Part shown: one piece after another, positions 10,412-24,220 of the stretch | Numbering within the stretch: the stretch's first letter is position 1 | Layout of the letters: each line of letters opens with the position of its first letter | IMG/VR virus record: IMGVR_UViG_2698536560_000009 | Location: 1 to 25,337 of that record | Direction: 5' to 3' (one strand) | DNA from: a virus | Lineage: Duplodnaviria > Heunggongvirae > Uroviricota > Caudoviricetes | DNA: 25,337 nt | Notes under the pieces: model-generated | What the model saw: the letters and a program-made list of their open reading frames with translations, nothing else | Database searches by the model: none | What the model was told of the DNA's origin: nothing | Translations under genes and position numbers: made by a program

Positions 10412-12554
<2,143 letters not shown>

Positions 12555-14487: not shown

Positions 14488-16407
14488 TTAAAACCAGTTA
14501 CGATTATTAAGTGCTGAAAGTCCTTTTTTCTTAGGTTTTGATTTCTGCTTCTCTTTCTGTACTGGTTGTTGTTCTGCTTTAGTTTTTATGGATTCTTCTA
14601 CTTTAGTATTTAGTTCTTTTTGTTTAGCTCTATACTCTCGCAACTTCCTATACGGTTGTGCACCAAGTGCCTGTATCTTGTGATCAATCGCTGCTAATGA
14701 GTAGACGAGCGTATCGAGACATTCGTTACGCTCTCCATTTGGATTCTCCCATACCATCACTGAACCTTTTCGTACTAGTTTTTCTGCTGTAAGTTGGAGG
14801 AAGTAATCATCGACAAGGGAATGACTGAAGTGTATATTAGTACTATACTCTCCCCCTTCACATGCCTGTCGTAATAACTTCTTAACCTGGTGCTTCAGTA
14901 CTTGAGTATTAATATTAACCAGTTGATGTCCTGCCGTTGTGGAATCCTTCGTGATGGGACCAGTCTGTGTGTTTGCACCCTTAATTGCATGCCATCGTCC
15001 CCCACTGGAAGAACAAAAGCGATATATGGAACTGGTTGCAGATCCGTTTGAGCTATCAATAAAGGATCTCAGTACTGGTACTTTTCTACCTGAAGTGGTT
15101 TTAAATATACTCTTACTATAATTAAGTAGTTCAGTATATGCCTTATCTTCATACTTAGTACAATCGACACCATAAAACATACGGTGGTCCAGAACCCATA
15201 TATTCTTTTCATCAAATGCAATAGTACTACATTCTAAGCGGTCTATCTGTTGGTCACATGCCAGTACAATACCAAGTGCATTATCTGGAATATGTTTTAC
15301 ATCTAAATCAAAGTCGCGTAAGTTTTCCAGTACTGTAAGATCTTCTTTAATATTATTCTTATCTACCCACGGTAAACCGAGTACGTTATTATAGAAAGAT
15401 TGTTCTTCAAAGTTTATCCATGAGTTCTTAAAGTCTTCAACAATCTTCTCAATAGTAGTAATCGGTGAATATAGTCTATTAACATGGTATCCCCTGAAAC
15501 CCATCACATGCAGTCTGTGTGCTTTCCAGTAACCTTTTGCAACCATCCGTGCACGTTGCCCTTCAGTGATTACTTCATCACATCCTGGACAGTGTAGGCG
15601 TGCTGTAGTGGGTTCTGGTGCATTACGTCGTTCGTTGAACTTCACCCATTCAAACTTTATATTCTCCCATTCTAAAATATGGTCATGATCACAATGTGGA
15701 CACACGACATGAAAATGTCTCTGGTCTGAGAGTTCCCATTGCTGGCAGATCATATCGTCCTGTACTAATGGTGTGGAGGCCATCACGATCAGGGAGTTCT
15801 TACCAAACTGAGTTGCACGCTGTTCTATGAGTGATAGGGGGTTGCCCTCATCTTGTTCTGGATCTACACCTGATAATTCATCAATGAAGATTGCAGGAAC
15901 TGTAAGCGAGCGTAGGGACTGGCTAGAATTGAGGTTAACAAAGTATGTCTTAGTACCGTCAACGTTCTGTTGAGTGTGTAGATCGTTTACTGCATTCTTA
16001 TCTGATTTGTCAGTGATTAATGCTTGAAGGTTTGGACACGCATTAATAGTATCCATCCATTTACCAGTACGGAACTTTTTCACAGTACTACCACTACTAC
16101 CCGCAAATATCATATGGGAGGGTTTATTTGCCATCCTGTAAAGCATTGCATTTTGTAGTATTGTTGTCTTGAGTAATTGTGCACTACTCATTAAACAGAT
16201 CTTCTGTACTGATGGATCTACTGTGGCGTTTAGGGGTTCTACTTGAAATGAAAATAATTTAGTTTTTTGTTGTGCCAGTGGTCCATCTGGAAATACAGTA
16301 TATTGTTCACACCATTCAGATGGTTTAATCTTCGGTGGGGGTAATATTGATTTCAGACTCTGGTTCAGAATCTTCATCATCTTCTTCTGGCTGTTCTTCG
16401 TACTCAT
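14488..16407 (-). CDS. terminase large subunit (lambda gpA-like)
   Basis: 639 aa. Contains Cys/His clusters (CPHCDHDH, HCPGCDE) and an acidic IFIDELSG segment typical of gpA-family terminases. Follows a Nu1-like small subunit gene. Confidence 0.8.
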   Translation of the reverse strand: MSTKNSQKKMMKILNQSLKSILPPPKIKPSEWCEQYTVFPDGPLAQQKTKLFSFQVEPLNATVDPSVQKICLMSSAQLLKTTILQNAMLYRMANKPSHMIFAGSSGSTVKKFRTGKWMDTINACPNLQALITDKSDKNAVNDLHTQQNVDGTKTYFVNLNSSQSLRSLTVPAIFIDELSGVDPEQDEGNPLSLIEQRATQFGKNSLIVMASTPLVQDDMICQQWELSDQRHFHVVCPHCDHDHILEWENIKFEWVKFNERRNAPEPTTARLHCPGCDEVITEGQRARMVAKGYWKAHRLHVMGFRGYHVNRLYSPITTIEKIVEDFKNSWINFEEQSFYNNVLGLPWVDKNNIKEDLTVLENLRDFDLDVKHIPDNALGIVLACDQQIDRLECSTIAFDEKNIWVLDHRMFYGVDCTKYEDKAYTELLNYSKSIFKTTSGRKVPVLRSFIDSSNGSATSSIYRFCSSSGGRWHAIKGANTQTGPITKDSTTAGHQLVNINTQVLKHQVKKLLRQACEGGEYSTNIHFSHSLVDDYFLQLTAEKLVRKGSVMVWENPNGERNECLDTLVYSLAAIDHKIQALGAQPYRKLREYRAKQKELNTKVEESIKTKAEQQPVQKEKQKSKPKKKGLSALNNRNWF

Positions 16408-16846
16408 ATGATCCTAATTCCCTTAGTTTCTCATCAATCCTTTCTTCTAGTTTTATCCGCAATGTATCCGCATCTTCACTTTCAAATAGTTCTACATAGA
16501 TAGATGCCGGAATACTTCTTAGTACTCCGCGTAGTGCTGCAAAATAACCAGTTAGTGTTTGAGTTACATAATCAGTACTCAATACCTTTTCAGTACTGAT
16601 ATTTAATTCAATCTCAACTAAATCTGCTTCAAGTGATATCTTGCGTAATTTCTCTTTTTCAATCTGTTCTTTTACATCAGTATTTCGCAATGGTTGGATA
16701 ATATTAATTAGTATCCATTGATCTATTTCTTTTTTACTTGCTTTCTTTGGGTGTGGCATTCCACGTTTTGCCCATTCACGGCTTACAGTACTGTCATTAA
16801 CTCCCATACGTTCTGCAATTTCGTTTGTTGTATATCTATCGTTCAA
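16325..16846 (-). CDS. terminase small subunit (lambda Nu1-like, N-terminal HTH)
   Basis: The N-terminal TNEIAERMGVNDSTVSREWAKRGMP resembles the Nu1 winged-HTH (…IRTIQNWQEQGMP), and the C-terminus is acidic. The start codon at 16844-16846 is TTG; the first in-frame ATG would truncate the HTH. Confidence 0.6.
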   Translation of the reverse strand: MNDRYTTNEIAERMGVNDSTVSREWAKRGMPHPKKASKKEIDQWILINIIQPLRNTDVKEQIEKEKLRKISLEADLVEIELNISTEKVLSTDYVTQTLTGYFAALRGVLRSIPASIYVELFESEDADTLRIKLEERIDEKLRELGSYEYEEQPEEDDEDSEPESEINITPTED

Positions 16847-16904
16847 TTTGTTTATCCAGGTTTTGTTTGTGTTATTTAAAATATTTAATATGCAAAAAAA
16901 ATAG

Positions 16905-16915
16905 TTCGCGGCGAA
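16905..16915. other. GC-rich near-palindrome TTCGC-G-GCGAA, candidate cosN-like site
   Basis: An isolated GC-rich symmetric element in the AT-rich region about 60 bp upstream of the Nu1-like terminase start. It resembles the GGCGGCGA core of lambda cosN. A 7-bp inverted repeat acttccc/gggaagt lies at 16915-16921 and 16940-16946. Confidence 0.25.
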
Positions 16916-16952
16916 ACTTCCCGATTGTGTCTATTCAGAGGGAAGTACCTAT

Positions 16953-16981
16953 AGTATTTATTAACCCTACCATGTTATACT
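16953..16981 (+). promoter_or_regulatory. candidate sigma70-type promoter with extended -10 (TGtTATACT) for the SLATT-NTase operon
   Basis: TG at 16973-16974 and TATACT at 16976-16981, about 30 nt upstream of the ATG at 17011. The -35 is weak. Confidence 0.3.
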
Positions 16982-17010
16982 GTTAGGGAATCGGATTTGT
17001 TGGAGTGTTT

Positions 17011-17514
17011 ATGAATCAGAAGCTCATCCAAACAGTCATTTCTGAGTGTCATCGTATAGAAGAGGACGCTCTTTACTCTTCTAAATCTCATTATAATGTT
17101 TCTGATAGATGGGATAAGCTGAATCTGTGGTTCGGTGTACCATTAGCAATCTTAACCGCTTTGAGTGGTATTGCCGCAATCAAGAGTACAGCCAATGCTG
17201 TTGTAGCTATTTCCATAACTGCTACAATTCTAACTGCATTAAATACGTCTCTTAACCCAAGTAAGCGTGCTGCACTTCATAAATCAGCAGCAAATGAATA
17301 TAATAAATTAAAGAATGAAGTTAGAATATTTAGGGAAATATTGACTTCTAATTTTGATTTTACTGATAAAACTTTGATTGAAAAACTTACGAGTTACTCT
17401 GATCGACGCAATCAACTTAATTCAAGTTCGCCAAATATTCCTCGGTGGGCTTATGAGAAAACTCAAAGAGATGTTAACCAAGGCTTTACTAAGTATAATA
17501 TTGACAAGGAATAA
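17011..17514 (+). CDS. SLATT-like two-transmembrane effector protein
   Basis: 167 aa from the ATG at 17011 (GGAG 6 nt upstream; the ORF track begins at a GTG at 17005). Two adjacent hydrophobic helices (LWFGVPLAILTALSGIAAI and AVVAISITATILTALNTSL) are flanked by short soluble regions. The stop lies 2 nt before the NTase start. The family call rests on architecture and on the SMODS neighbour. Confidence 0.45.
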   Translation: MNQKLIQTVISECHRIEEDALYSSKSHYNVSDRWDKLNLWFGVPLAILTALSGIAAIKSTANAVVAISITATILTALNTSLNPSKRAALHKSAANEYNKLKNEVRIFREILTSNFDFTDKTLIEKLTSYSDRRNQLNSSSPNIPRWAYEKTQRDVNQGFTKYNIDKE

Positions 17515-17516
17515 AC

Positions 17517-18293
17517 ATGACAGTCAGTACCTATCTTGAGTCTATTAAAAGCAATGCTTATCAAAGAGATATTACAATAACGAATTCAATTGCAACCATA
17601 AAAAACAGACTGAATGGTTATTTTGCTGGTGAACTTGTTAGTCATTTTGTATTTGGCTCATATTCACGTAATACAATGCTTCCTCGTAGCTATGATCCTT
17701 CTTCTGATGTTGATTATATGGTTGTATTCAAAAATGTAATATATCAGCCTCAGACCTACCTAAACAAGCTAAGGGGTTTTGTAAATTATTACTATCGTAC
17801 ATCTGAAATAAAGCAAAGCCACCCTACTATTCAATTGAACCTTAATCATATTACTTTCGAGCTTGTCCCTGCATCTCATAATATTTTATTTGGTTATCAA
17901 ATCCCTTCCAACCAGGATTTTTTGAACCGTTGGATGAATACCGATCCCAATGCGTTCAATACTGATTTAACTAATTGCAATAAAAATAATAACAATTTAA
18001 TTAAGCCTCTTATTCGCATAATGAAATATTGGAATGCCAATGCAGGTTATGTCTTTGAGTCGTATCAACTTGAAAAAGATATTGTTAGCTTTAACTATTT
18101 TTGGTGCTCTACCCTTAAAGAATATTTTTACTCTGCTGTAGAACAACTTTCAGGTTCCTATTATCTCGCACAATGGAAAAAAGATAAGATTCAGCGTCTA
18201 AAAAATTCAGTTATGATGTCAAAATATTATGAGCAGTTAAACAATCATTTTGCCGCCGAAAATGAAATAAAGAAAATTTTACCCATAAAATAA
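17517..18293 (+). CDS. SMODS / CD-NTase-like nucleotidyltransferase (Pol-beta superfamily)
   Basis: 258 aa. Carries the GS-x15-DVD signature (FGSYSRNTMLPRSYDPSSDVDYMVVF), a downstream acidic ITFELV, and a LIRIMKYW motif like the OAS/cGAS-type helix. AAGGA Shine-Dalgarno 8 nt upstream. Confidence 0.6.
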   Translation: MTVSTYLESIKSNAYQRDITITNSIATIKNRLNGYFAGELVSHFVFGSYSRNTMLPRSYDPSSDVDYMVVFKNVIYQPQTYLNKLRGFVNYYYRTSEIKQSHPTIQLNLNHITFELVPASHNILFGYQIPSNQDFLNRWMNTDPNAFNTDLTNCNKNNNNLIKPLIRIMKYWNANAGYVFESYQLEKDIVSFNYFWCSTLKEYFYSAVEQLSGSYYLAQWKKDKIQRLKNSVMMSKYYEQLNNHFAAENEIKKILPIK

Positions 18294-18298
18294 TCTTG

Positions 18299-18326
18299 CC
18301 CCCTTATATTACTAATTATAAGGGGG
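18299..18326. terminator. perfect 10-bp stem hairpin immediately after the NTase gene
   Basis: cccccttata - ttactaat - tataaggggg, starting 6 nt after the stop at 18291-18293. A U-rich tract follows on the minus-strand side, so it may act bidirectionally. Confidence 0.4.
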
Positions 18327-18540
18327 TACAGCTCATTGTCTTTGCTTGAATCCAAAAAATCATTCTCGATATTTTTACTTGTAAGAATTGAGTACAGTTG
18401 AAACATTCCACCGTCGTACAGCTAAATGAGATTGCTAAGATTGTATGACCCGCTCCTCTACCATCAGTATCAGGAGATTACATTCCCTTATCGCTAAAGA
18501 TAGCAGTTTTGTGAGAAGAGATAGTTTCCAATTTCTAATT

Positions 18541-18567
18541 TATAAGCCAGTTAGTTGCTGGCTTATA
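18541..18567 (-). terminator. hairpin 4 nt downstream of the tail-anchored protein gene
   Basis: tataagccag - ttagttg - ctggcttata, a 10-bp stem. There is no clear U-run. Confidence 0.3.
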
Positions 18568-18571
18568 ATCA

Positions 18572-19246
18572 TCATGATTTAACAGATACTAATGCCAGAA
18601 TAGATGCTACTGCGGCAGCCAACGAAACTATAAGACTTAATGTAGGTATATATAATGCTGTAACTCTTCTAAACTTGTTCTCTTTGTCGTTATACTGAAT
18701 AAAAAACATCTTAATTTTCAGTAAGCGGATTAAAATTAAATCTTTTAATGCGGCCTTGTGTAAAACACCTGTAACACGGTGATAATGAAGTAAATTCTTT
18801 ACTGCTTTCTCTATTTTTTTTGGTGTTATGTGTTTAACGTTATATGAATGATGGACAATCAAGGAATCATGTGTTGCTAATGAATCATCTGAAGTAGACG
18901 GAAAAAGAATTATATGCACAGCCCCCGTCGCACTATATGTAATTGAAAGTGCGGCTCCTTTTTGCCAATGATGATTAAACTTTATGCTTTCGGTAGTTTT
19001 TTCCTGCCGCATATTTCCAGTCATACGATCAGCGATCTGAAATGTCAGGCAATCAAAACCATAACCATCTGGTTCATCTTGCATATCAATTATATTAAAT
19101 CTTATATGCTCTCCTGATAATTGGGTTGATAGTATTTCTAATTGCTTTTTTATTTTAGGTTTGAATATAATCCAGTTTACATTAGAAATTAATCTTCTAA
19201 GTTCGTCTCTTTCAAACTTTGCTCTAAGCTCTTTCTTCCACTCCAT
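18572..19246 (-). CDS. hypothetical tail-anchored membrane protein
   Basis: 224 aa with a GGAG Shine-Dalgarno and ATG at 19244-19246. A soluble His-rich domain is followed by a single C-terminal transmembrane helix (LYIPTLSLIVSLAAAVASILALVSV). Sits alone on the minus strand between hairpins. Confidence 0.5.
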   Translation of the reverse strand: MEWKKELRAKFERDELRRLISNVNWIIFKPKIKKQLEILSTQLSGEHIRFNIIDMQDEPDGYGFDCLTFQIADRMTGNMRQEKTTESIKFNHHWQKGAALSITYSATGAVHIILFPSTSDDSLATHDSLIVHHSYNVKHITPKKIEKAVKNLLHYHRVTGVLHKAALKDLILIRLLKIKMFFIQYNDKENKFRRVTALYIPTLSLIVSLAAAVASILALVSVKS

Positions 19247-19569
19247 TATCTCCCCCTAAGCCTCTTGCTACTATAGATTATTTAGATTCTATCGTACCAT
19301 AATTGATAAACTTACCCTAGGTCGATAATCAATAGTATATGTATGTTCTATTTGGTGGTAAAGTGTTAATGCTACATGGTATAGGCTATAATGATGATTA
19401 CTCATAAAATCAATTCTTATATCGATATTTTCAGTTTATTATCGCAGTTTGAGTATTCGTCCATGTATAAGTTTGCATAAAAAATAGCACACTGGTTAGA
19501 GTAAAATCATATTGAACATTGTGTTTGAATGCTCTATATTTTGGTGATGTTAACTTTTGAGATTGCAGA

Positions 19570-20373
19570 ATGAAATTTGTCTCTGAAAGAATTGACCATG
19601 TAAAAATAGCTAATGGATATTGTGTAATATGTGGTAATTTTGGCAAATTAAAAAAAGACCATGTTCCCCCGCAATGTGCATCTAAACCTTCACCTATGTT
19701 ACAAAAAACGATTTCTGAGTATTTCTCTAATACTCGAGTACCACCAATTAAAGCAAAAAGCGGGACAACTTTTCGTACCATTTGTCACAATTGTAACTCG
19801 AATATTTTAGGATCAATGGATGCAGAAATAGGCCGTGTTACAACTGAATTCATCGAAAAGTTAAATGATTATTTTAGTGGTAAGTTCTTTTACAAAAATT
19901 ATATTTCATTAAAATTTGATGCGGATAAATTTCTAAGAGCAATGATTGGACACCTTCTGGCTGCAACTTCAGTAAAAGATTGTATGAAGCCTATTGTTGA
20001 TAGTCCTTTTTATACTCCATTGAGAAATTTTGTATTAGGCAGGAATCCAGACATTGGGGCAACTCATAATATTTACTATTGGTTTTATCCATTCAGAAAA
20101 CAAATTACTGCTCAGTCAGTTACATTCTACAATAATGGACATCATAGTATATGTTCTTGCTTACATTTTTTCCCAATATCTTTTTTGGTTACACTGAAGG
20201 AGCAAGGAACATTTCCTATTCATGCAACTGAAATGACTCAATATGATCAATCTCTTCATTTTAATATGACAACGGCTAATATTGATTATGCTTCATTTCC
20301 CTTTGTAGGTTTAAAGAATAATCAATTTATGATGGTAATTTCTGGTCATACTTGTGTTAGTTATCCTAAATGA
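19570..20373 (+). CDS. HNH-motif (His-Me finger) nuclease-like protein with uncharacterised C-terminal domain
   Basis: The N-terminus contains C-x2-C ... DH ... C-x2-C-N (CVICGNFGKLKKDHVPP ... TICHNCNSN). The spacer is longer than in the canonical HNH motif. The C-terminal ~180 aa are unrecognised. Confidence 0.5.
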   Translation: MKFVSERIDHVKIANGYCVICGNFGKLKKDHVPPQCASKPSPMLQKTISEYFSNTRVPPIKAKSGTTFRTICHNCNSNILGSMDAEIGRVTTEFIEKLNDYFSGKFFYKNYISLKFDADKFLRAMIGHLLAATSVKDCMKPIVDSPFYTPLRNFVLGRNPDIGATHNIYYWFYPFRKQITAQSVTFYNNGHHSICSCLHFFPISFLVTLKEQGTFPIHATEMTQYDQSLHFNMTTANIDYASFPFVGLKNNQFMMVISGHTCVSYPK

Positions 20374-20400
20374 TTTTCAACTAAAGGTTGAGAAATATAG

Positions 20401-20445
20401 ACATAAGAACATAAGAACATAAGAACATAAGAACATAAGAACATA
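20401..20445. repeat. tandem octanucleotide repeat (ACATAAGA) x 5.6
   Basis: acataaga x5 then acata, in the intergenic region between the HNH gene stop (20373) and the next gene (20591). Confidence 0.9.
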
Positions 20446-20457
20446 GTCCAACTGTTC

Positions 20458-20519
20458 AGCGACACGTCCCACACACACCAACTAAACAAACCTACCCTTT
20501 ATGAGTGGGGCGTGTCGCT
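20458..20519. repeat. GC-rich inverted repeat with 15-bp arms (one mismatch) and a 32-nt CA-rich spacer
   Basis: agcgacacgtcccac (20458-20472) pairs with gtggggcgtgtcgct (20505-20519); the spacer is acacaccaactaaacaaacctaccctttatga. Confidence 0.8.
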
Positions 20520-20590
20520 AATAGTTTACGCCAGAATGGTTATTATGGTAAAGTTCATTTTTCACTTTGATATATTGGATTTCTAAAAAA

Positions 20591-21142
20591 ATGGAAGCTG
20601 AAACCATTACACAACTCATTGCAGTCGGTGGTACTTTAGGCGGTGCATTAATAGCTGCGGGTGTAACATTGGCAAGCCAATTAATCACTAAAAAATATGA
20701 GAACGAAAAACTAAAAAAACAACTTTTATTCAAAATACTCGAAGATGAATTAAAAGAAAAAAAGCAAACTATTAAACCTTTCATTCAGTTTATTAATTCT
20801 TTGAATCTTCCAGAAAATTTTAATTTTTATGATGATGGTGATCTTTTAGATCAAATTATGCTTTATAAACAGGATTTAATTAAAAGTAAAGCAAGTGACT
20901 TCCTTCTCGATTATACATTATACATGACACCACAAATTCACGATGCGATTTGGACGGTTACTAATGCTATAAATGATTTTGAAGAATTGGGAGCACGGTT
21001 TTATGATTCATCATTGAGTAAACAAGAAAACGATGAAATATTACTTAGAAATTGTAGCGGTAAGCCAACTGAAATTTGGGAAGCTTTGATGAAATTGAAA
21101 GGCTTGCTCTATAGTGAAGTTAACATAGCTGATAAATTATGA
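20591..21142 (+). CDS. hypothetical membrane-anchored coiled-coil protein
   Basis: The ORF track starts at a TTG at 20567; the first ATG is at 20591. An N-terminal transmembrane helix (LIAVGGTLGGALIAAGVTLASQLI) is followed by a K/E-rich helical domain. The stop overlaps the next gene's ATG as ATGA at 21139-21142. Confidence 0.5.
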   Translation: MEAETITQLIAVGGTLGGALIAAGVTLASQLITKKYENEKLKKQLLFKILEDELKEKKQTIKPFIQFINSLNLPENFNFYDDGDLLDQIMLYKQDLIKSKASDFLLDYTLYMTPQIHDAIWTVTNAINDFEELGARFYDSSLSKQENDEILLRNCSGKPTEIWEALMKLKGLLYSEVNIADKL

Positions 21143-21840
21143 ATATAAAAACTATAAACTCTACTCTTGTCGGCATTGTTGCAGTACTTCTGTTTTTAGC
21201 AGTCTTAGTACTCGTTAAGGTTCTATTCGCTGGTAGCAGGGGGTTTGAATGGGGGAACGCAGCTGATTTAACAAGTGCGTTATGCAATATCGTGATTGCG
21301 TCTACAGCTCTTTGTGCTGCTTTTGTAGCAAATAATTGGTTCGTTCAGAATAAAAAATTAAAATCCCTTTCTACCTCACATCAGTTGGCTATGAAATTTG
21401 AGATGCAGTTATGGGAAATAAATTCACGTTTATATAATGATGGTATAGTTCGTGCTTCCATCAGGAAATATGTTCAGGATAATAAAGAACTGACAGATGA
21501 AATAAAATCTAAAGTTGCTGCTGAAATTAATAAAAAGGCCACAAGTGATTTATCTGAACTTGCTAAGCTATATACGACAAGGTCAATGCTAGCCAGGTTT
21601 GATATTAAGTTAAGCGAACGGCTTGAAAATTTATTTAAAAATATATTAGAGTTAAGGCAGTCATATTTAGACAATCAATATATATATCTATTGACCATAT
21701 GCAAACATATTAATTGCCCCAAGCATGAGGACGTAATTGCAGCTACAGAAAATCTTGAAAGTGTTAAAAGAGAGCTAGCTGCCATATTTCAGTACGAGCT
21801 ATGTGAAACAAATATTGATACTGATTATTCGTTCAGCTAA
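21139..21840 (+). CDS. hypothetical 2TM membrane protein (paralog A)
   Basis: 233 aa with an N-terminal hydrophobic hairpin (LVGIVAVLLFLAVLVLVKVLFAGSRGFEWG, then LCNIVIASTALCAAFVANNWF) and a soluble C-terminal domain. The N-terminus is about 35% identical by eye to that of the 22818-23561 protein. Confidence 0.5.
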   Translation: MNIKTINSTLVGIVAVLLFLAVLVLVKVLFAGSRGFEWGNAADLTSALCNIVIASTALCAAFVANNWFVQNKKLKSLSTSHQLAMKFEMQLWEINSRLYNDGIVRASIRKYVQDNKELTDEIKSKVAAEINKKATSDLSELAKLYTTRSMLARFDIKLSERLENLFKNILELRQSYLDNQYIYLLTICKHINCPKHEDVIAATENLESVKRELAAIFQYELCETNIDTDYSFS

Positions 21841-21877
21841 ATTTATAGTTAATTGATGTAAATAAAAAGGAAAGCTT

Positions 21878-22699
21878 ATGCTTGGGGAGTCATTTAATCA
21901 ATTCATGGTAGAGTCTTATTTGTCCAGTACCTCAATAGGTGGTGGGCTTACTGCTGTGCGGAAATGTAGAGCACATGATAAAGGTAGCTTCTATAGCAGC
22001 TTCTTTCAATTATCAATTGGCATAGAAAGGTTTTTTAAGATTATCTTCATACTCAATCATATGATCGAAAATAATCTTGAGAAGCCAGACTTCCGTACAC
22101 TTAAAAAATTCAGCCATAATATTGCGGAGCTTCATAAAAACTGTTCAAGCTATGGTGCTAGCCATTTACCCAATTTGGAGTGGGAATTAAACTGGCAGCA
22201 AAACCTCATATTAGAAATGCTTTCTGAATTCGCTGATGCTTCAAGATATTATAATCTTGATAAAATTGTAAAAGGCAAAAAAGAAGTCAAAGATCCGTTA
22301 GCACAGTGGAACGAAATAATTAATTCTTGCTTCCGTAAACACATTACTGATTCTAGAAAACAAAAACTAGAAAGAGAATTAAATTTATGGGCCGACAAAT
22401 ACAAAGCATACGGTTACACCTGGAATAGAGGTCTTGATGGTGCGATTTTAAGCCAAATTGATGAGTATATACTTTCCTGGAAAGTAATAAACGTTTCACC
22501 TTATATTGTGTTTGAAATCATTGATATGTTGCAGCCTTATTATTATCTAATTTCTAAATTTAAAGATGATATTGACAACATTGAGCACAGTAAAGGGATA
22601 AGAGAACCTCTGGTTCCATATCTCCATGAGATATTTGTATTTCTACTTGTCCATAAGAAGTTAGCTTTGAGTAGAAAAACATGGAGTTTCCGTTATTAA
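21878..22699 (+). CDS. hypothetical soluble protein flanked by the two 2TM paralogs
   Basis: 273 aa with an AAGGA Shine-Dalgarno and ATG at 21878. An R-x4-H (RKCRAH) motif lies near the N-terminus, but no confident family assignment is possible. Confidence 0.45.
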   Translation: MLGESFNQFMVESYLSSTSIGGGLTAVRKCRAHDKGSFYSSFFQLSIGIERFFKIIFILNHMIENNLEKPDFRTLKKFSHNIAELHKNCSSYGASHLPNLEWELNWQQNLILEMLSEFADASRYYNLDKIVKGKKEVKDPLAQWNEIINSCFRKHITDSRKQKLERELNLWADKYKAYGYTWNRGLDGAILSQIDEYILSWKVINVSPYIVFEIIDMLQPYYYLISKFKDDIDNIEHSKGIREPLVPYLHEIFVFLLVHKKLALSRKTWSFRY

Positions 22700-22735
22700 T
22701 TACATGGACATGTATCACATTATTAATCAGAGAGG

Positions 22736-22753
22736 CACTAATCATGATTAGTG
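22736..22753. promoter_or_regulatory. 18-bp perfect palindrome cactaatcatgattagtg, candidate operator upstream of 2TM paralog B
   Basis: Perfect dyad in the 118-bp gap between the genes at 21878-22699 and 22818-23561. Confidence 0.35.
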
Positions 22754-22817
22754 GAATATATATCCATCAATGCTACATATATACATCTATGTCTTTTATT
22801 TAAGAAATGAGATTAAC

Positions 22818-23561
22818 ATGCTTAATATTAAAAAATATAATTTAATACTACTAAGTACCGTACTATTACTGCTGCTAATTGCTATATTAGTTGGTGTAAA
22901 AATATTATTTTCTGGTTCGAAAGGATGGGAGTGGGTAACTTTAATTGGAACATTATGTAGTGCTGTAGGTACATTAGGTACACTATGGGTAGCCTACCAA
23001 GCATACCTAAAAGCACCTGAATGGTTGTCGCAAAAACATTATGATGTAGTATATGGTGTTATTGAGAAAGCAATTTATCAAGATCTTAATAAAGTACGTA
23101 CTTCAACCTTAATTTTAAAACATCAATTAGTGACATTCTCCAAAAAATATCGCAATCATTTAAAAAACGAGACCATACCCCAAGATTCACATGATGAGTT
23201 TATGAAGGAAACAGATGCTCTTGTTTCCGATTTATTCTTCACTTCTTACTCCGTTATTAATTCCTTAAAATCTATTGATAGAACTAATTATGCTTTAAGC
23301 GAATACACAAAAAACATTATTGCTGAACTTAAATTAAATATTGATGAATATAACGGACTGAGTATCGATTTCTATATTGCAAGTTCTGAGGTTCCTGCAC
23401 TTATACAGGCCGATGAATGTGTGAGGGATCAAACTAGTAGTGAGCTTTTCGTTATACAGTCAAAAGCAATTTCACTTCACAATAAGATTTCATCTTTCAT
23501 AAAAGATATATATGATGATAACTATCCAATTGATAACTTCATAACTCTAAAGAAAAAATGA
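22818..23561 (+). CDS. hypothetical 2TM membrane protein (paralog B)
   Basis: The likely start is the ATG at 22818 (MLNIKKYNLILL...); the ORF track begins at 22770. The N-terminal hairpin LILLSTVLLLLLIAILVGVKILFSGSKGWEW matches paralog A (shared VK.LF.GS.G.EW). Confidence 0.5.
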   Translation: MLNIKKYNLILLSTVLLLLLIAILVGVKILFSGSKGWEWVTLIGTLCSAVGTLGTLWVAYQAYLKAPEWLSQKHYDVVYGVIEKAIYQDLNKVRTSTLILKHQLVTFSKKYRNHLKNETIPQDSHDEFMKETDALVSDLFFTSYSVINSLKSIDRTNYALSEYTKNIIAELKLNIDEYNGLSIDFYIASSEVPALIQADECVRDQTSSELFVIQSKAISLHNKISSFIKDIYDDNYPIDNFITLKKK

Positions 23562-23696
23562 TTAATACCCTATCTTGCAAACCTATTAAGTTTGTAGAAT
23601 TACTGATGACTTAATAGAAAAAGTCATACTTGATTCAAAATCATTAAGGATGCATATTAAAGAAACGTTTACATTTCCCAAATAAGCATCAGTTCT

Positions 23697-23730
23697 AAAA
23701 CACCGGATTTATCATTGCATCTGGTGTTTT
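23697..23730. terminator. hairpin at the convergent junction of the plus-strand island and minus-strand small genes
   Basis: aaaacacc / ggtgtttt 8-bp stem with an 18-nt loop. The right arm overlaps the last codons of the 66-aa ORF. Confidence 0.25.
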
Positions 23731-23912
23731 GAATAAATTTCTATTAGTAAATCTCTGTGTAGATTAGTACTAGGTAGTTCTTGCAATAATTGTATGTTAT
23801 GCTTTTCAATTACTTGATAACCTAGCTCTAGTACTTCTACAATTCCTTTTTTAAAATCAAACTCATAGATGTACTCTCCATAGTTATGGTGTATAAAATT
23901 GACGCCTTTCAT
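23712..23912 (-). CDS. hypothetical small protein (second gene of coupled pair)
   Basis: 66 aa with a GAGGA Shine-Dalgarno 7 nt upstream. Its ATG overlaps the stop of the 103-aa ORF as ATGA at 23909-23912. Confidence 0.4.
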   Translation of the reverse strand: MKGVNFIHHNYGEYIYEFDFKKGIVEVLELGYQVIEKHNIQLLQELPSTNLHRDLLIEIYSKHQMQ

Positions 23913-24220
23913 TCGTAGTCCTCACTTATTTTATTCATTTGTGTTTGAATAATAATTAATCGATTAATGTCGATCTCTGTTTGCAGTGCTAAGCTTGCTT
24001 GGAATAGTTCTGATTCACTCATCCTAGATAGATCAGGTGTTTCATTTATTTGAGTACCATCAATCTTCTGATGATAGAATTGTAGTCCTTCTCGTTGCAG
24101 TACTACACGTGTTGGGTGATTAAAGTAGACAATCTGATCCGTGAATACTGTCATAGTACTGTGATCCTCATACGTGTATCGGTGAAACAGATCATACTCT
24201 TCAGTTTTTAGTAATTTCAT
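23909..24220 (-). CDS. hypothetical small protein (first gene of coupled pair)
   Basis: 103 aa with an AGGA Shine-Dalgarno 9 nt upstream of the ATG at 24218-24220. No transmembrane segment and no recognised motif. Confidence 0.45.
   Translation of the reverse strand: MKLLKTEEYDLFHRYTYEDHSTMTVFTDQIVYFNHPTRVVLQREGLQFYHQKIDGTQINETPDLSRMSESELFQASLALQTEIDINRLIIIQTQMNKISEDYE

Follow-up and report, generated by a model that had tools for sequence, protein, structure and literature searches.

A phage-borne SLATT_4 and CD-NTase gene pair of Escherichia coli is a Type I CBASS of a catalogued kind

Do the two small genes next to the terminase genes of an E. coli phage form a signalling defence system, and if so, is this system a new one? 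The pair is located in the 25,337-nucleotide IMG/VR record IMGVR_UViG_2698536560_000009, which was analysed as a whole and is referred to here as the window. The initial annotation had read it as a CBASS-like combination of a SLATT-type effector with two transmembrane helices (2TM) and a SMODS/CD-NTase nucleotidyltransferase, and had suggested an undescribed minimal variant. Profile HMM matches and the CD-NTase fold of the cyclase agree with the first part. The second part did not hold, since the RefSeq names for both genes and the dedicated full-length PADLOC models for this cyclase and effector subfamily already existed and the pair is a standard Type I CBASS. Thus, the pair is an intact Type I CBASS on an E. 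coli prophage and, because its kind has already been catalogued, the finding is correct but ordinary and does not constitute a new variant.

Gene arrangement and flanking elements

Both genes are located on the plus strand. The gene of the SLATT_4-family 2TM effector (167 aa) extends from 17011 to 17514, with an ATG at 17011 and a TAA stop at 17512–17514, and the gene of the SMODS/CD-NTase cyclase (258 aa, without an AGS-C fusion) extends from 17517 to 18293, whereby reading of the open reading frames places its ATG at 17517, 2 bases past the SLATT stop. These coordinates, together with the hydropathy profile, confirm the coupled plus-strand genes and the small protein with two adjacent transmembrane helices that had been described at the outset. 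An in-frame GTG is present at 17005, upstream of the SLATT ATG, and RefSeq uses the ATG as the start. A plausible ribosome-binding site (GGAG, plus strand, 17002–17005) lies 5 nt ahead of this ATG. Direct reading of the intergenic region between the small terminase gene (terS) and the SLATT gene revealed an extended -10 promoter element (TGtTATACT, plus strand, 16973–16981), which is considered as a candidate only, since a scan of the region for consensus promoters and terminators yielded counts no higher than in shuffled sequence. Just past the SMODS stop, between the convergent genes and assigned to neither strand, there is a perfect 12-bp GC-capped hairpin (18297–18328) with an RNA folding energy of -19.3 kcal/mol (z = -3.8), whereby none of 200 shuffles was equally stable. 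It probably presents a transcription stop or an RNA-stabilising element and was missed by the terminator scan because no T-run follows.

The pair is flanked by terminase, portal, and capsid genes, which substantiates the earlier assignment of the sequence to a phage. The genes for the small terminase subunit (minus strand, 16325–16846; phrog_57, 8e-20) and the GpA-type large terminase (minus strand, 14488–16407; phrog_15, 1.6e-132) belong to this context and not to the system itself. The GC content of the pair is 0.33 compared to 0.40 for the phage backbone.

The two proteins and their assignment to Type I CBASS

Type I CBASS are defined by a cyclase and an effector and by the absence of Cap2/Cap3. 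With regard to the cyclase, all sequence-level statements of the initial annotation about a 258-aa nucleotidyltransferase with GS-x15-DVD and LIRIMKYW motifs proved accurate. GS-x15-DVD spans residues 47–66, FELVP is found at 114, and LIRIMKYW at 165. In an alignment of 44 homologues, G47, S48, D64, and D66 are invariant and E115 is conserved in at least 90%, so that the Pol-beta active site of a CD-NTase, which consists of GS, [DE]x[DE], and a third acidic residue, is intact. The proposed profile searches yielded 108.6 bits for Pfam SMODS (cut-off 26.5; E 4.9e-31) and a full-length match of 375 bits to the PADLOC CBASS “Cyclase” model PDLC00769 (1–256 of 261). The score for the NCBIfam CBASS_cyclase_b equivalog NF041117 was 94.6 bits and thus below the cut-off of 200, which, judged by this profile, makes the protein a relative rather than a member of that subfamily. 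Structure prediction, which had also been suggested, gave an AlphaFold (AF2) model with a pLDDT of 91.3 that covers the full two-lobed CD-NTase fold. As the relatives are 256–283 aa long, which is the usual family length, the enzyme is not unusually short, contrary to what had been assumed. All of the best 50 Foldseek matches in the PDB are bacterial CD-NTases (CdnB/C/D/E/G or DncV), with PaCdnD as the best one (E 5e-12, TM 0.75). For this reason, the possibility that the protein is an antibiotic nucleotidyltransferase (ANT) or an MNT antitoxin, which would have spoken against the original reading, was rejected; the score for Pfam NTP_transf_2 (20.2 bits) was also below its cut-off of 21.

The effector passes the NCBIfam SLATT_4 model NF033632 with 141.4 bits (cut-off 55) and matches the PADLOC CBASS “Effector 2TM” model PDLC00712 at full length with 234 bits. 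Its score for Pfam SLATT_4 (PF18186) is 21.3 bits and falls short of the gathering score of 27, so that one of the two curated models supports SLATT_4 membership and the other one does not. Kyte-Doolittle windows revealed hydrophobic segments at about 39–57 and 63–81, which are separated by a loop of 4–5 residues, and the AF2 model (pLDDT 90.4) is all-helical with helices at 3–57, 61–81, 83–111, 119–139, and 145–156. Hydropathy and model together show the two adjacent transmembrane helices between cytoplasmic helices that characterise SLATT proteins, with a cytoplasmic C-terminal region that is likewise helical. The cytoplasmic N-terminal helix carries a conserved R-I-E-E-D-x-x-Y-S-S-K-x-H-Y-N motif among the invariant positions of the family alignment. 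A holin, the other reading named beforehand as contradicting the SLATT assignment, was rejected in view of the SLATT_4 score of 141 bits and because no holin family of Pfam or PHROGs was matched.

The effector gene directly adjoins the cyclase gene and belongs to a recognised effector class according to PADLOC, NCBIfam, and its adjacency across genera. No Cap2/Cap3, HORMA/TRIP13, or Type IV accessory genes accompany the pair: the open reading frames from 16325 to 24220 gave no PADLOC accessory or relevant Pfam match, and among the neighbours only the small terminase gene matched a PADLOC model (mad1), weakly and over a short stretch (E 0.001). The initial annotation had thus been right about the missing sensor domain and the missing Cap2/Cap3, but both are normal for the subfamily. 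Likewise, the effector gene does come first as described, which is no peculiarity, as the same order was found in every homologous SLATT pair examined and in the lactococcal system discussed below.

Since standard defence-finder models and RefSeq label the pair, the system type is described, and sister architectures of Type I CBASS with a SLATT effector have been validated experimentally, the discovery value is limited. Membrane effectors, SLATT4 included, belong to the CBASS effector classes listed as most abundant (PMC12480259). As a study object, the pair offers a very compact, natural, and prophage-borne E. coli example of the SLATT_4 branch.

Related systems, conservation, and carriage by phages

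A verified antiphage system of similar architecture is the Type I CBASS pUCCL631_167/168 from a Lactococcus plasmid, which combines a SLATT protein (PF18186) with an NTase/AGS-C protein (PMC11381338). It also consists of two genes with SLATT first and CD-NTase second, but the lactococcal cyclase has 408 aa and a C-terminal AGS-C Ig-like domain, compared to 258 aa without this domain here, and the SLATT protein has 190 aa compared to 167 aa. Furthermore, the lactococcal system is plasmid-borne in a Firmicute, whereas the present one is prophage-borne in E. coli. EcCdnF04-SLATT6 and EcCdnF05-SLATT6, which restrict phages of five families at least 10^4-fold (Richmond-Buccola et al., 10.1101/2023.05.21.541620), also come from E. 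coli and are Type I CBASS operons in which two genes encode a cyclase and a SLATT-class membrane effector, but they comprise AGS-C fusion cyclases and SLATT6 instead of a cyclase without AGS-C and SLATT_4.

The nearest solved enzymes belong to clade D, by sequence as well as by fold. CdnD of P. aeruginosa (6P8U/6P82) and of B. cereus (9SA4) share the GS/DxD/acidic core and a K-P-L-x-x-x-M-K-x-W helix with the cyclase, and the solved clade D enzymes are its best sequence matches (E 6e-6), at an identity of only ~16%. However, PaCdnD works with HORMA/TRIP13 in a Type III system, and BcCdnD, a cA3 synthase, was assayed with the Cap4 nuclease. AGS-C is never found on Type I enzymes of clade D (10.1101/2023.05.21.541620), in contrast to the ~50%-identical relatives of the present cyclase, which possess it. 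Close relatives occur both with and without AGS-C, and such a mixed presence is found in clades F and G alone (10.1101/2023.05.21.541620); this indirect hint would fit a placement in clade F or G. Beyond CBASS, DRT10/UG17 RT-SLATT and ThsH of type VII Thoeris also possess a SLATT domain as the presumed membrane-disrupting executioner; there, however, the signal comes from a reverse transcriptase and its ncRNA or from a TIR enzyme that produces cADPR, respectively, instead of from a CD-NTase.

Homologues of the SLATT protein and the cyclase number in the hundreds or dozens. With pN at 0.08–0.27 compared to pS at 0.62–0.83, purifying selection acts on both genes. The SLATT-then-cyclase pair is kept in Providencia, Photobacterium, Kluyvera, Rouxiella, Serratia, and a P2-like phage within unrelated flanks, with a 4-nt overlap or a 2-nt gap at the gene junction, and it is present in 9 of 17 IMG/VR viral loci. 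In six viral loci, PDLC00769-type cyclases are instead paired with PADLOC “4TM” CBASS effectors encoded upstream or downstream. The IMG/VR loci L025–L030 are phage-borne two-gene operons with a PDLC00769 cyclase (299–315 bits; 46–48% identity) like the one studied here, but their effector is a 4TM protein of ~256–259 aa (PDLC00719/00726) and their gene order varies, whereas the present effector is a 2TM protein and is encoded first. Thus, one cyclase subfamily swaps between 2TM and 4TM effectors. A 267-aa HNH-like neighbour was considered as an obligate third component, as the pair is accompanied by 54%-identical homologues in Providencia and Rouxiella. This was rejected because Serratia, Kluyvera, and Photobacterium lack the protein.

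In the window, the pair is the first cargo past the small terminase gene, and the arrangement recurs in Rouxiella, Serratia, Kluyvera, and two IMG/VR contigs. With its place directly behind terS in related prophages from four genera and its further occurrence in a P2-like cargo slot and on viral contigs of IMG/VR, the pair is recurrent phage cargo. The pair is more conserved than the phage backbone. In E. coli N61 it lies within a whole prophage adjoining yggS. At an identity of at least 99%, it was detected in 88 of 5,426 complete E. coli genomes, in 87 of which it resides in a decayed prophage remnant. The terminase-adjacent position, as well as a cargo block outlasting the rest of the prophage in these 87 genomes, illustrates CBASS as stable cargo of temperate phages, although its retention in the decayed remnants could also reflect hitchhiking rather than selection. 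Among 50,697 phage records, megablast found no match to either the pair or the phage backbone, and tblastn against the phage collection gave a single distant one, a Clostridioides phage at 44%.

Proposed mode of action and alternative explanations

Taken together, the pair is most probably (probability about 0.78) the Type I CBASS cargo (“moron”) of a temperate E. coli phage, which likely defends the lysogen by abortive infection. By shielding the lysogen from other phages, it would therefore shield the prophage, too. Two-gene Type I CBASS operons are enough for defence (10.1101/2023.05.21.541620). In the proposed course of events, both translationally linked genes would be transcribed divergently from the phage late operon, and infection by another phage would switch on the CD-NTase. 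Escape mutations in other Type I CBASS concern prohead protease/scaffold, capsid, and tail-fibre proteins. The Pol-beta active site (G47-S48, D64, D66, E115), as judged from sequence and model, would then turn NTPs into a nucleotide second messenger. Following the model in the literature, this messenger would act on SLATT at its cytoplasmic helical part, where the invariant acidic/basic motif is located, upon which the protein would oligomerise and breach the inner membrane, so that the cell would die before the cycle of the invader is completed. SLATT effectors are thought to form such membrane-breaching oligomers (10.64898/2025.12.03.692087). It counts against this explanation that the SLATT protein has no recognised nucleotide-binding domain and that no solved structural relative was found, the PDB having yielded no SLATT structure. 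The scores for NF041117 and Pfam SLATT_4 below their cut-offs, the possible hitchhiking in the decayed remnants, and the DRT10 and clade F findings described below weigh in the same direction. A literature search found no report of a product, phenotype, or expression for this subfamily, and SLATT activation is named an open question in the literature of 2025–2026.

More far-reaching proposals can be attached to this reading. The short SLATT_4-paired cyclases without AGS-C might make a messenger outside the known CBASS cyclic di- and trinucleotides, and the conserved N-terminal helix of SLATT_4 together with N102, R105, and E109 might be an unrecognised receptor that drives membrane-pore assembly. 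The terminase-proximal slot in at least four genera and the conservation above that of the backbone suggest that the pair may be a long-standing, phage-adapted exclusion module, which may also have to avoid firing on the capsid-assembly proteins of its own phage. That a novel messenger, the SLATT_4 helix as a compact nucleotide receptor, and such an exclusion module all apply jointly is rather improbable.

A CBASS-like defence with a non-canonical product, such as a linear 2'-5' or 3'-5' oligonucleotide or a short polymer sensed by SLATT, is an unlikely explanation. It would fit that SLATT also serves reverse transcriptase systems with DNA polymer output: for DRT10, a related SLATT has been proposed to respond to DNA polymers, with its activation called “a central open question”, and the present effector matches the PADLOC RT-associated model RTasSLATT (PDLC03811) at full length (1.6e-14). 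Nor is SLATT tied to cyclic oligonucleotides, since it is also used by the Thoeris type that signals with cADPR. Moreover, SLATT-associated clade F cyclases are without a known product, and none of these SLATT6 partners had shown in vitro cyclase activity at the time of writing of 10.1101/2023.05.21.541620. However, fold and active site match those of enzymes making cyclic di- and trinucleotides, cA3 is the product of BcCdnD, the nearest relative by sequence among the solved enzymes, and the same cyclase subfamily also drives 4TM CBASS effectors.

In an inverted guard arrangement, a constitutive cyclase signal would hold SLATT off until phage sponges or nucleases remove the signal and free its toxicity. 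Such a logic has reportedly been described for an mCpol/2TM-SAVED system, is compatible with the sequence, and would suit a cyclase that has neither AGS-C nor another sensor domain, unlike its ~50%-identical relatives. It is nevertheless very improbable, as the enzyme is a SMODS/CD-NTase and not mCpol, and all tested Type I CBASS operons act as infection-activated systems. Similarly, tight translational coupling and strict adjacency would suit a toxin-antitoxin-like pair, in which the nucleotidyltransferase restrains or covalently modifies SLATT by contact and no diffusible messenger is made. This is hardly to be expected, since the same cyclase subfamily also partners 4TM effectors, in either gene order, which fits a shared diffusible small-molecule signal better than a bespoke, co-evolved protein interface, and the fold is that of signal-making CD-NTases and not of MNT antitoxins. 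Finally, the absence of any defence role, with SLATT as a holin or lysis-timing protein beside an unrelated antibiotic/MNT-type nucleotidyltransferase, or with the pair as an anti-defence decoy akin to the counter-defence mimic considered initially, for which no support was found, has next to no probability, because the phage-borne location and the superficial resemblance of a small 2TM phage protein to class II holins are outweighed by the family and fold assignments given above, by searches of PHROGs and PADLOC that revealed no likeness to a known anti-CBASS protein, and by the occurrence of the pair outside prophage structural modules, namely in an integrase-adjacent island in Photobacterium and in Providencia, where its neighbours are housekeeping genes and a resolvase.

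A SLATT effector gene coupled to a CD-NTase gene

The window contains two coupled plus-strand genes, the coordinates and spacing of which agree with the initial annotation. ORF A (17011–17514, +) encodes the SLATT effector of 167 aa and extends from an ATG at 17011, with a GGAG 5 nt upstream and an in-frame GTG at 17005 as an alternative start, to a TAA stop at 17512–17514. ORF B (17517–18293, +) encodes the cyclase of 258 aa, its ATG being located 2 bases past the ORF A stop. A perfect 12-bp hairpin (18297–18328; −19.3 kcal/mol, z = −3.8) is located 3' of ORF B, between ORF B and a convergent gene (18572–19246, −). The latter encodes a 224-aa protein with a hydrophobic segment at its C-terminal end, for which searches of Pfam, PADLOC and PHROGs yielded no match.

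The assignment of the nucleotidyltransferase to the SMODS/CD-NTase enzymes was confirmed by the Pfam SMODS profile (E 4.9e-31, 108.6 bits, cut-off 26.5) and by the PADLOC CBASS "Cyclase" model PDLC00769, which ORF B matches end to end (1–256 of 261) with 375 bits. Its 94.6 bits fall short of the 200 bits required by the NCBIfam equivalog CBASS_cyclase_b, and it is thus a relative of that subfamily, not a member. ORF B carries the motifs GS-x15-DVD (residues 47–66), FELVP (at 114) and LIRIMKYW (at 165). In an alignment of 44 family members none of the catalytic residues G47, S48, D64 and D66 varies, and at least 90% of the sequences retain E115, so the active site is intact. An AlphaFold2 model built from this alignment (pLDDT 91.3, pTM 0.87) was compared with the PDB by using Foldseek, whereby the best 50 matches were all bacterial CD-NTases (CdnD, CdnB, CdnC, CdnE, CdnG, DncV), with CdnD from P. 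aeruginosa on top (E 5e-12, TM 0.75). An antibiotic nucleotidyltransferase or MNT was excluded by these profile and fold matches.

The cyclase family comprises 340 matches at E ≤ 1e-5, which are mostly 256–283 aa in length; a minority of ~395–407 aa, with ~50% identity to ORF B, carries a C-terminal AGS-C domain. ORF B is short by absence of this optional fusion and not by truncation. Clades F and G are the only ones in which some close relatives carry AGS-C and others lack it (10.1101/2023.05.21.541620); the solved structures nearest to ORF B belong to clade D. An AGS-C-fused relative (400 aa, 51% identical) was found in a bivalve gill-symbiont genome (locus L008, 4517–6203). The SLATT gene 121 bp upstream of it is truncated to 120 aa and has lost the C-terminal helices, and this locus probably represents a decaying system.

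The two-transmembrane protein is a SLATT protein, as had been proposed. ORF A exceeds the NCBIfam SLATT_4 cut-off (141 vs 55 bits) and aligns along its entire length with the PADLOC CBASS "Effector 2TM" model PDLC00712 (234 bits), and it also matches the model for RT-associated SLATT proteins from DRT systems (1.6e-14); it falls under the Pfam SLATT_4 threshold (21.3 vs 27). Its hydrophobic segments (approximately residues 39–57 and 63–81) are joined by a loop of 4–5 residues, which places the N- and C-termini together with the bulk of the protein on the same membrane side. The predicted all-helical model (pLDDT 90.4) shows a long helix (3–57) leading from the cytoplasm into TM1, TM2 (61–81) and three further cytoplasmic helices; none of the solved structures compared was alike. 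The positions invariant among 31 homologues, including E12, I16, E17, E18, D19, S23, K25, H27, W34, L100, N102 and R105, mostly fall into a cytoplasmic motif before TM1 (R-I-E-E-D-x-x-Y-S-S-K-x-H-Y-N) and the helix past TM2.

Type I CBASS is defined as a CD-NTase plus effector without Cap2/Cap3 or other accessories, and two genes of this kind suffice to confer defence (10.1101/2023.05.21.541620). Membrane proteins, SLATT4 and SLATT6 among them, account for over 40% of CBASS effectors (PMC12480259). CdnF04/05-SLATT6 operons from E. coli restrict phages at least 10^4-fold (10.1101/2023.05.21.541620), and a lactococcal plasmid system, in which SLATT (PF18186) precedes an NTase/AGS-C gene, is among the verified systems of PMC11381338. 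Given these precedents, the leading effector gene, the short cyclase and the lack of a sensor domain and of Cap2/Cap3, all of which are indeed present as initially annotated, are normal for this branch and not unusual. Thus, the suggestion of an undescribed minimal variant is not supported; the pair is a Type I CBASS of a kind already catalogued, and its effector is SLATT_4. RefSeq names the products "SLATT domain-containing protein" and "SMODS domain-containing nucleotidyltransferase". What remains of interest is how SLATT senses its signal and the stable terminase-proximal site in one temperate phage lineage.

Prophage carriage and relatives of the pair

The window is a prophage and the pair is part of its cargo. 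The suggested phage origin is borne out by flanking minus-strand genes to the left of the pair, which encode a large terminase (phrog_15, 1.6e-132), a small terminase, a portal protein and a major capsid protein (10713–12554, −). To the right there is an AT-richer block of uncharacterised genes (GC 0.33 vs 0.40). A megablast search of 50,697 deposited phage genomes with the phage backbone (1–16846) yielded no match. E. coli N61 harbors a 100% identical sequence as a whole prophage, which has a large serine recombinase and is integrated next to yggS; here, an IS3 splits a tail gene. The pair occurs at ≥99% identity in 88 of 5,426 complete E. coli genomes, among which the backbone is present only in N61 (1 of 5,426). 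The other 87 contain an ~8-kb remnant, in which SLATT and SMODS are accompanied by roughly the last 845 bp of the terminase side and by six hypothetical genes. The left breakpoint is common to the listed remnants within 3 bp, except for one slightly shorter copy, and in two remnants examined in detail the flanks are IS100 and IS3 inside a tRNA-Leu island.

In same-type prophages of Rouxiella and Serratia, and in a Kluyvera remnant, the pair directly follows the small terminase gene, and in a P2-like prophage it fills the cargo slot that separates replication gene A from the portal gene. Providencia and Photobacterium have kept the SLATT-then-cyclase order with a 4-nt overlap amid unrelated flanks. 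Identities to the window amount to 53–84% (SLATT) and 53–77% (SMODS) in Enterobacterales and Providencia, and to 39% and 49%, respectively, in Photobacterium, compared to 38–46% for the large terminase, 42–45% for the small terminase and 36–41% for the portal protein. Thus, the pair is better conserved than the backbone, which reflects either tighter constraint or exchange among these phages. Both genes are under purifying selection (pN 0.08–0.27 vs pS 0.62–0.83, with ratios that are rough due to saturated synonymous sites).

Proposed signalling between cyclase and SLATT

We consider it likely (probability roughly 0.78) that the pair is a prophage-encoded abortive-infection module. Expressed in the lysogen, the cyclase would be switched on by infection and produce a nucleotide messenger, which would bind the cytoplasmic helical region of SLATT; SLATT would then oligomerise and breach the inner membrane, presumably as a pore. 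By sequence, the nearest solved enzyme is CdnD from B. cereus (9SA4), a cA3 synthase. When the preprint 10.1101/2023.05.21.541620 was written, none of the clade F cyclases associated with SLATT had a known product in vitro. A non-cyclic product of ORF B appears improbable, and an inverted guard logic even less probable. SLATT domains also work in TIR/cADPR and in reverse-transcriptase/DNA systems, and their activation has been called a central open question in the literature.

Direct, toxin-antitoxin-like control of SLATT by the nucleotidyltransferase is likewise improbable, given the effectors found with one cyclase subfamily. Among 17 IMG/VR viral loci with cyclase family members, SLATT is located directly upstream in 9; in 6 it is replaced by a PADLOC "4TM" CBASS effector, upstream or downstream, and the remaining 2 are truncated where the contig ends. 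In loci L025–L030 the cyclase is 46–48% identical to ORF B, with PDLC00769 as best PADLOC model, and the partner is a 4TM effector of ~256–259 aa without a Pfam match, which lies downstream of the cyclase in L025 and upstream in L026. Such swapping within a cyclase subfamily has been described for Type I CBASS (10.1101/2023.05.21.541620). It favours a diffusible signal over a co-evolved protein-protein pair and argues for the messenger-based module. A lysis or decoy role seems very unlikely.

In its N-terminal region the major capsid protein resembles a prohead protease (matches to phrog_4523 and phrog_80), and its Rouxiella homologue combines Peptidase_S78 and Phage_capsid. Since escape mutations from Type I CBASS in published work map to prohead protease/scaffold proteins, the question arises how the phage avoids its own CBASS on induction.

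Neighbouring cargo genes

A 267-aa protein (19570–20373, +) with an N-terminal HNH-like motif (CxxC...DH...CxxCN) matches phrog_21495, which has no assigned function in PHROGs; it gave no PADLOC and no significant Pfam match. Homologues with 54% identity (L004 5828–6634, −; L011 12178–12984, +) adjoin the pair in Providencia and lie 4.4 kb away in Rouxiella; in Serratia, Kluyvera and Photobacterium the pair has no such neighbour. The protein looks like co-travelling phage cargo and is possibly an independent defence gene. Four co-directional cargo genes follow (20567–23561, +; 191, 233, 273 and 263 aa), which have neither Pfam nor PADLOC matches. The proteins of 191, 233 and 263 aa begin with a membrane anchor, and those of 233 and 263 aa share an N-terminal TM region (42% identical, E 8e-7). 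This block may constitute another uncharacterised membrane-linked system and is kept alongside the CBASS pair in the 88 E. coli genomes.
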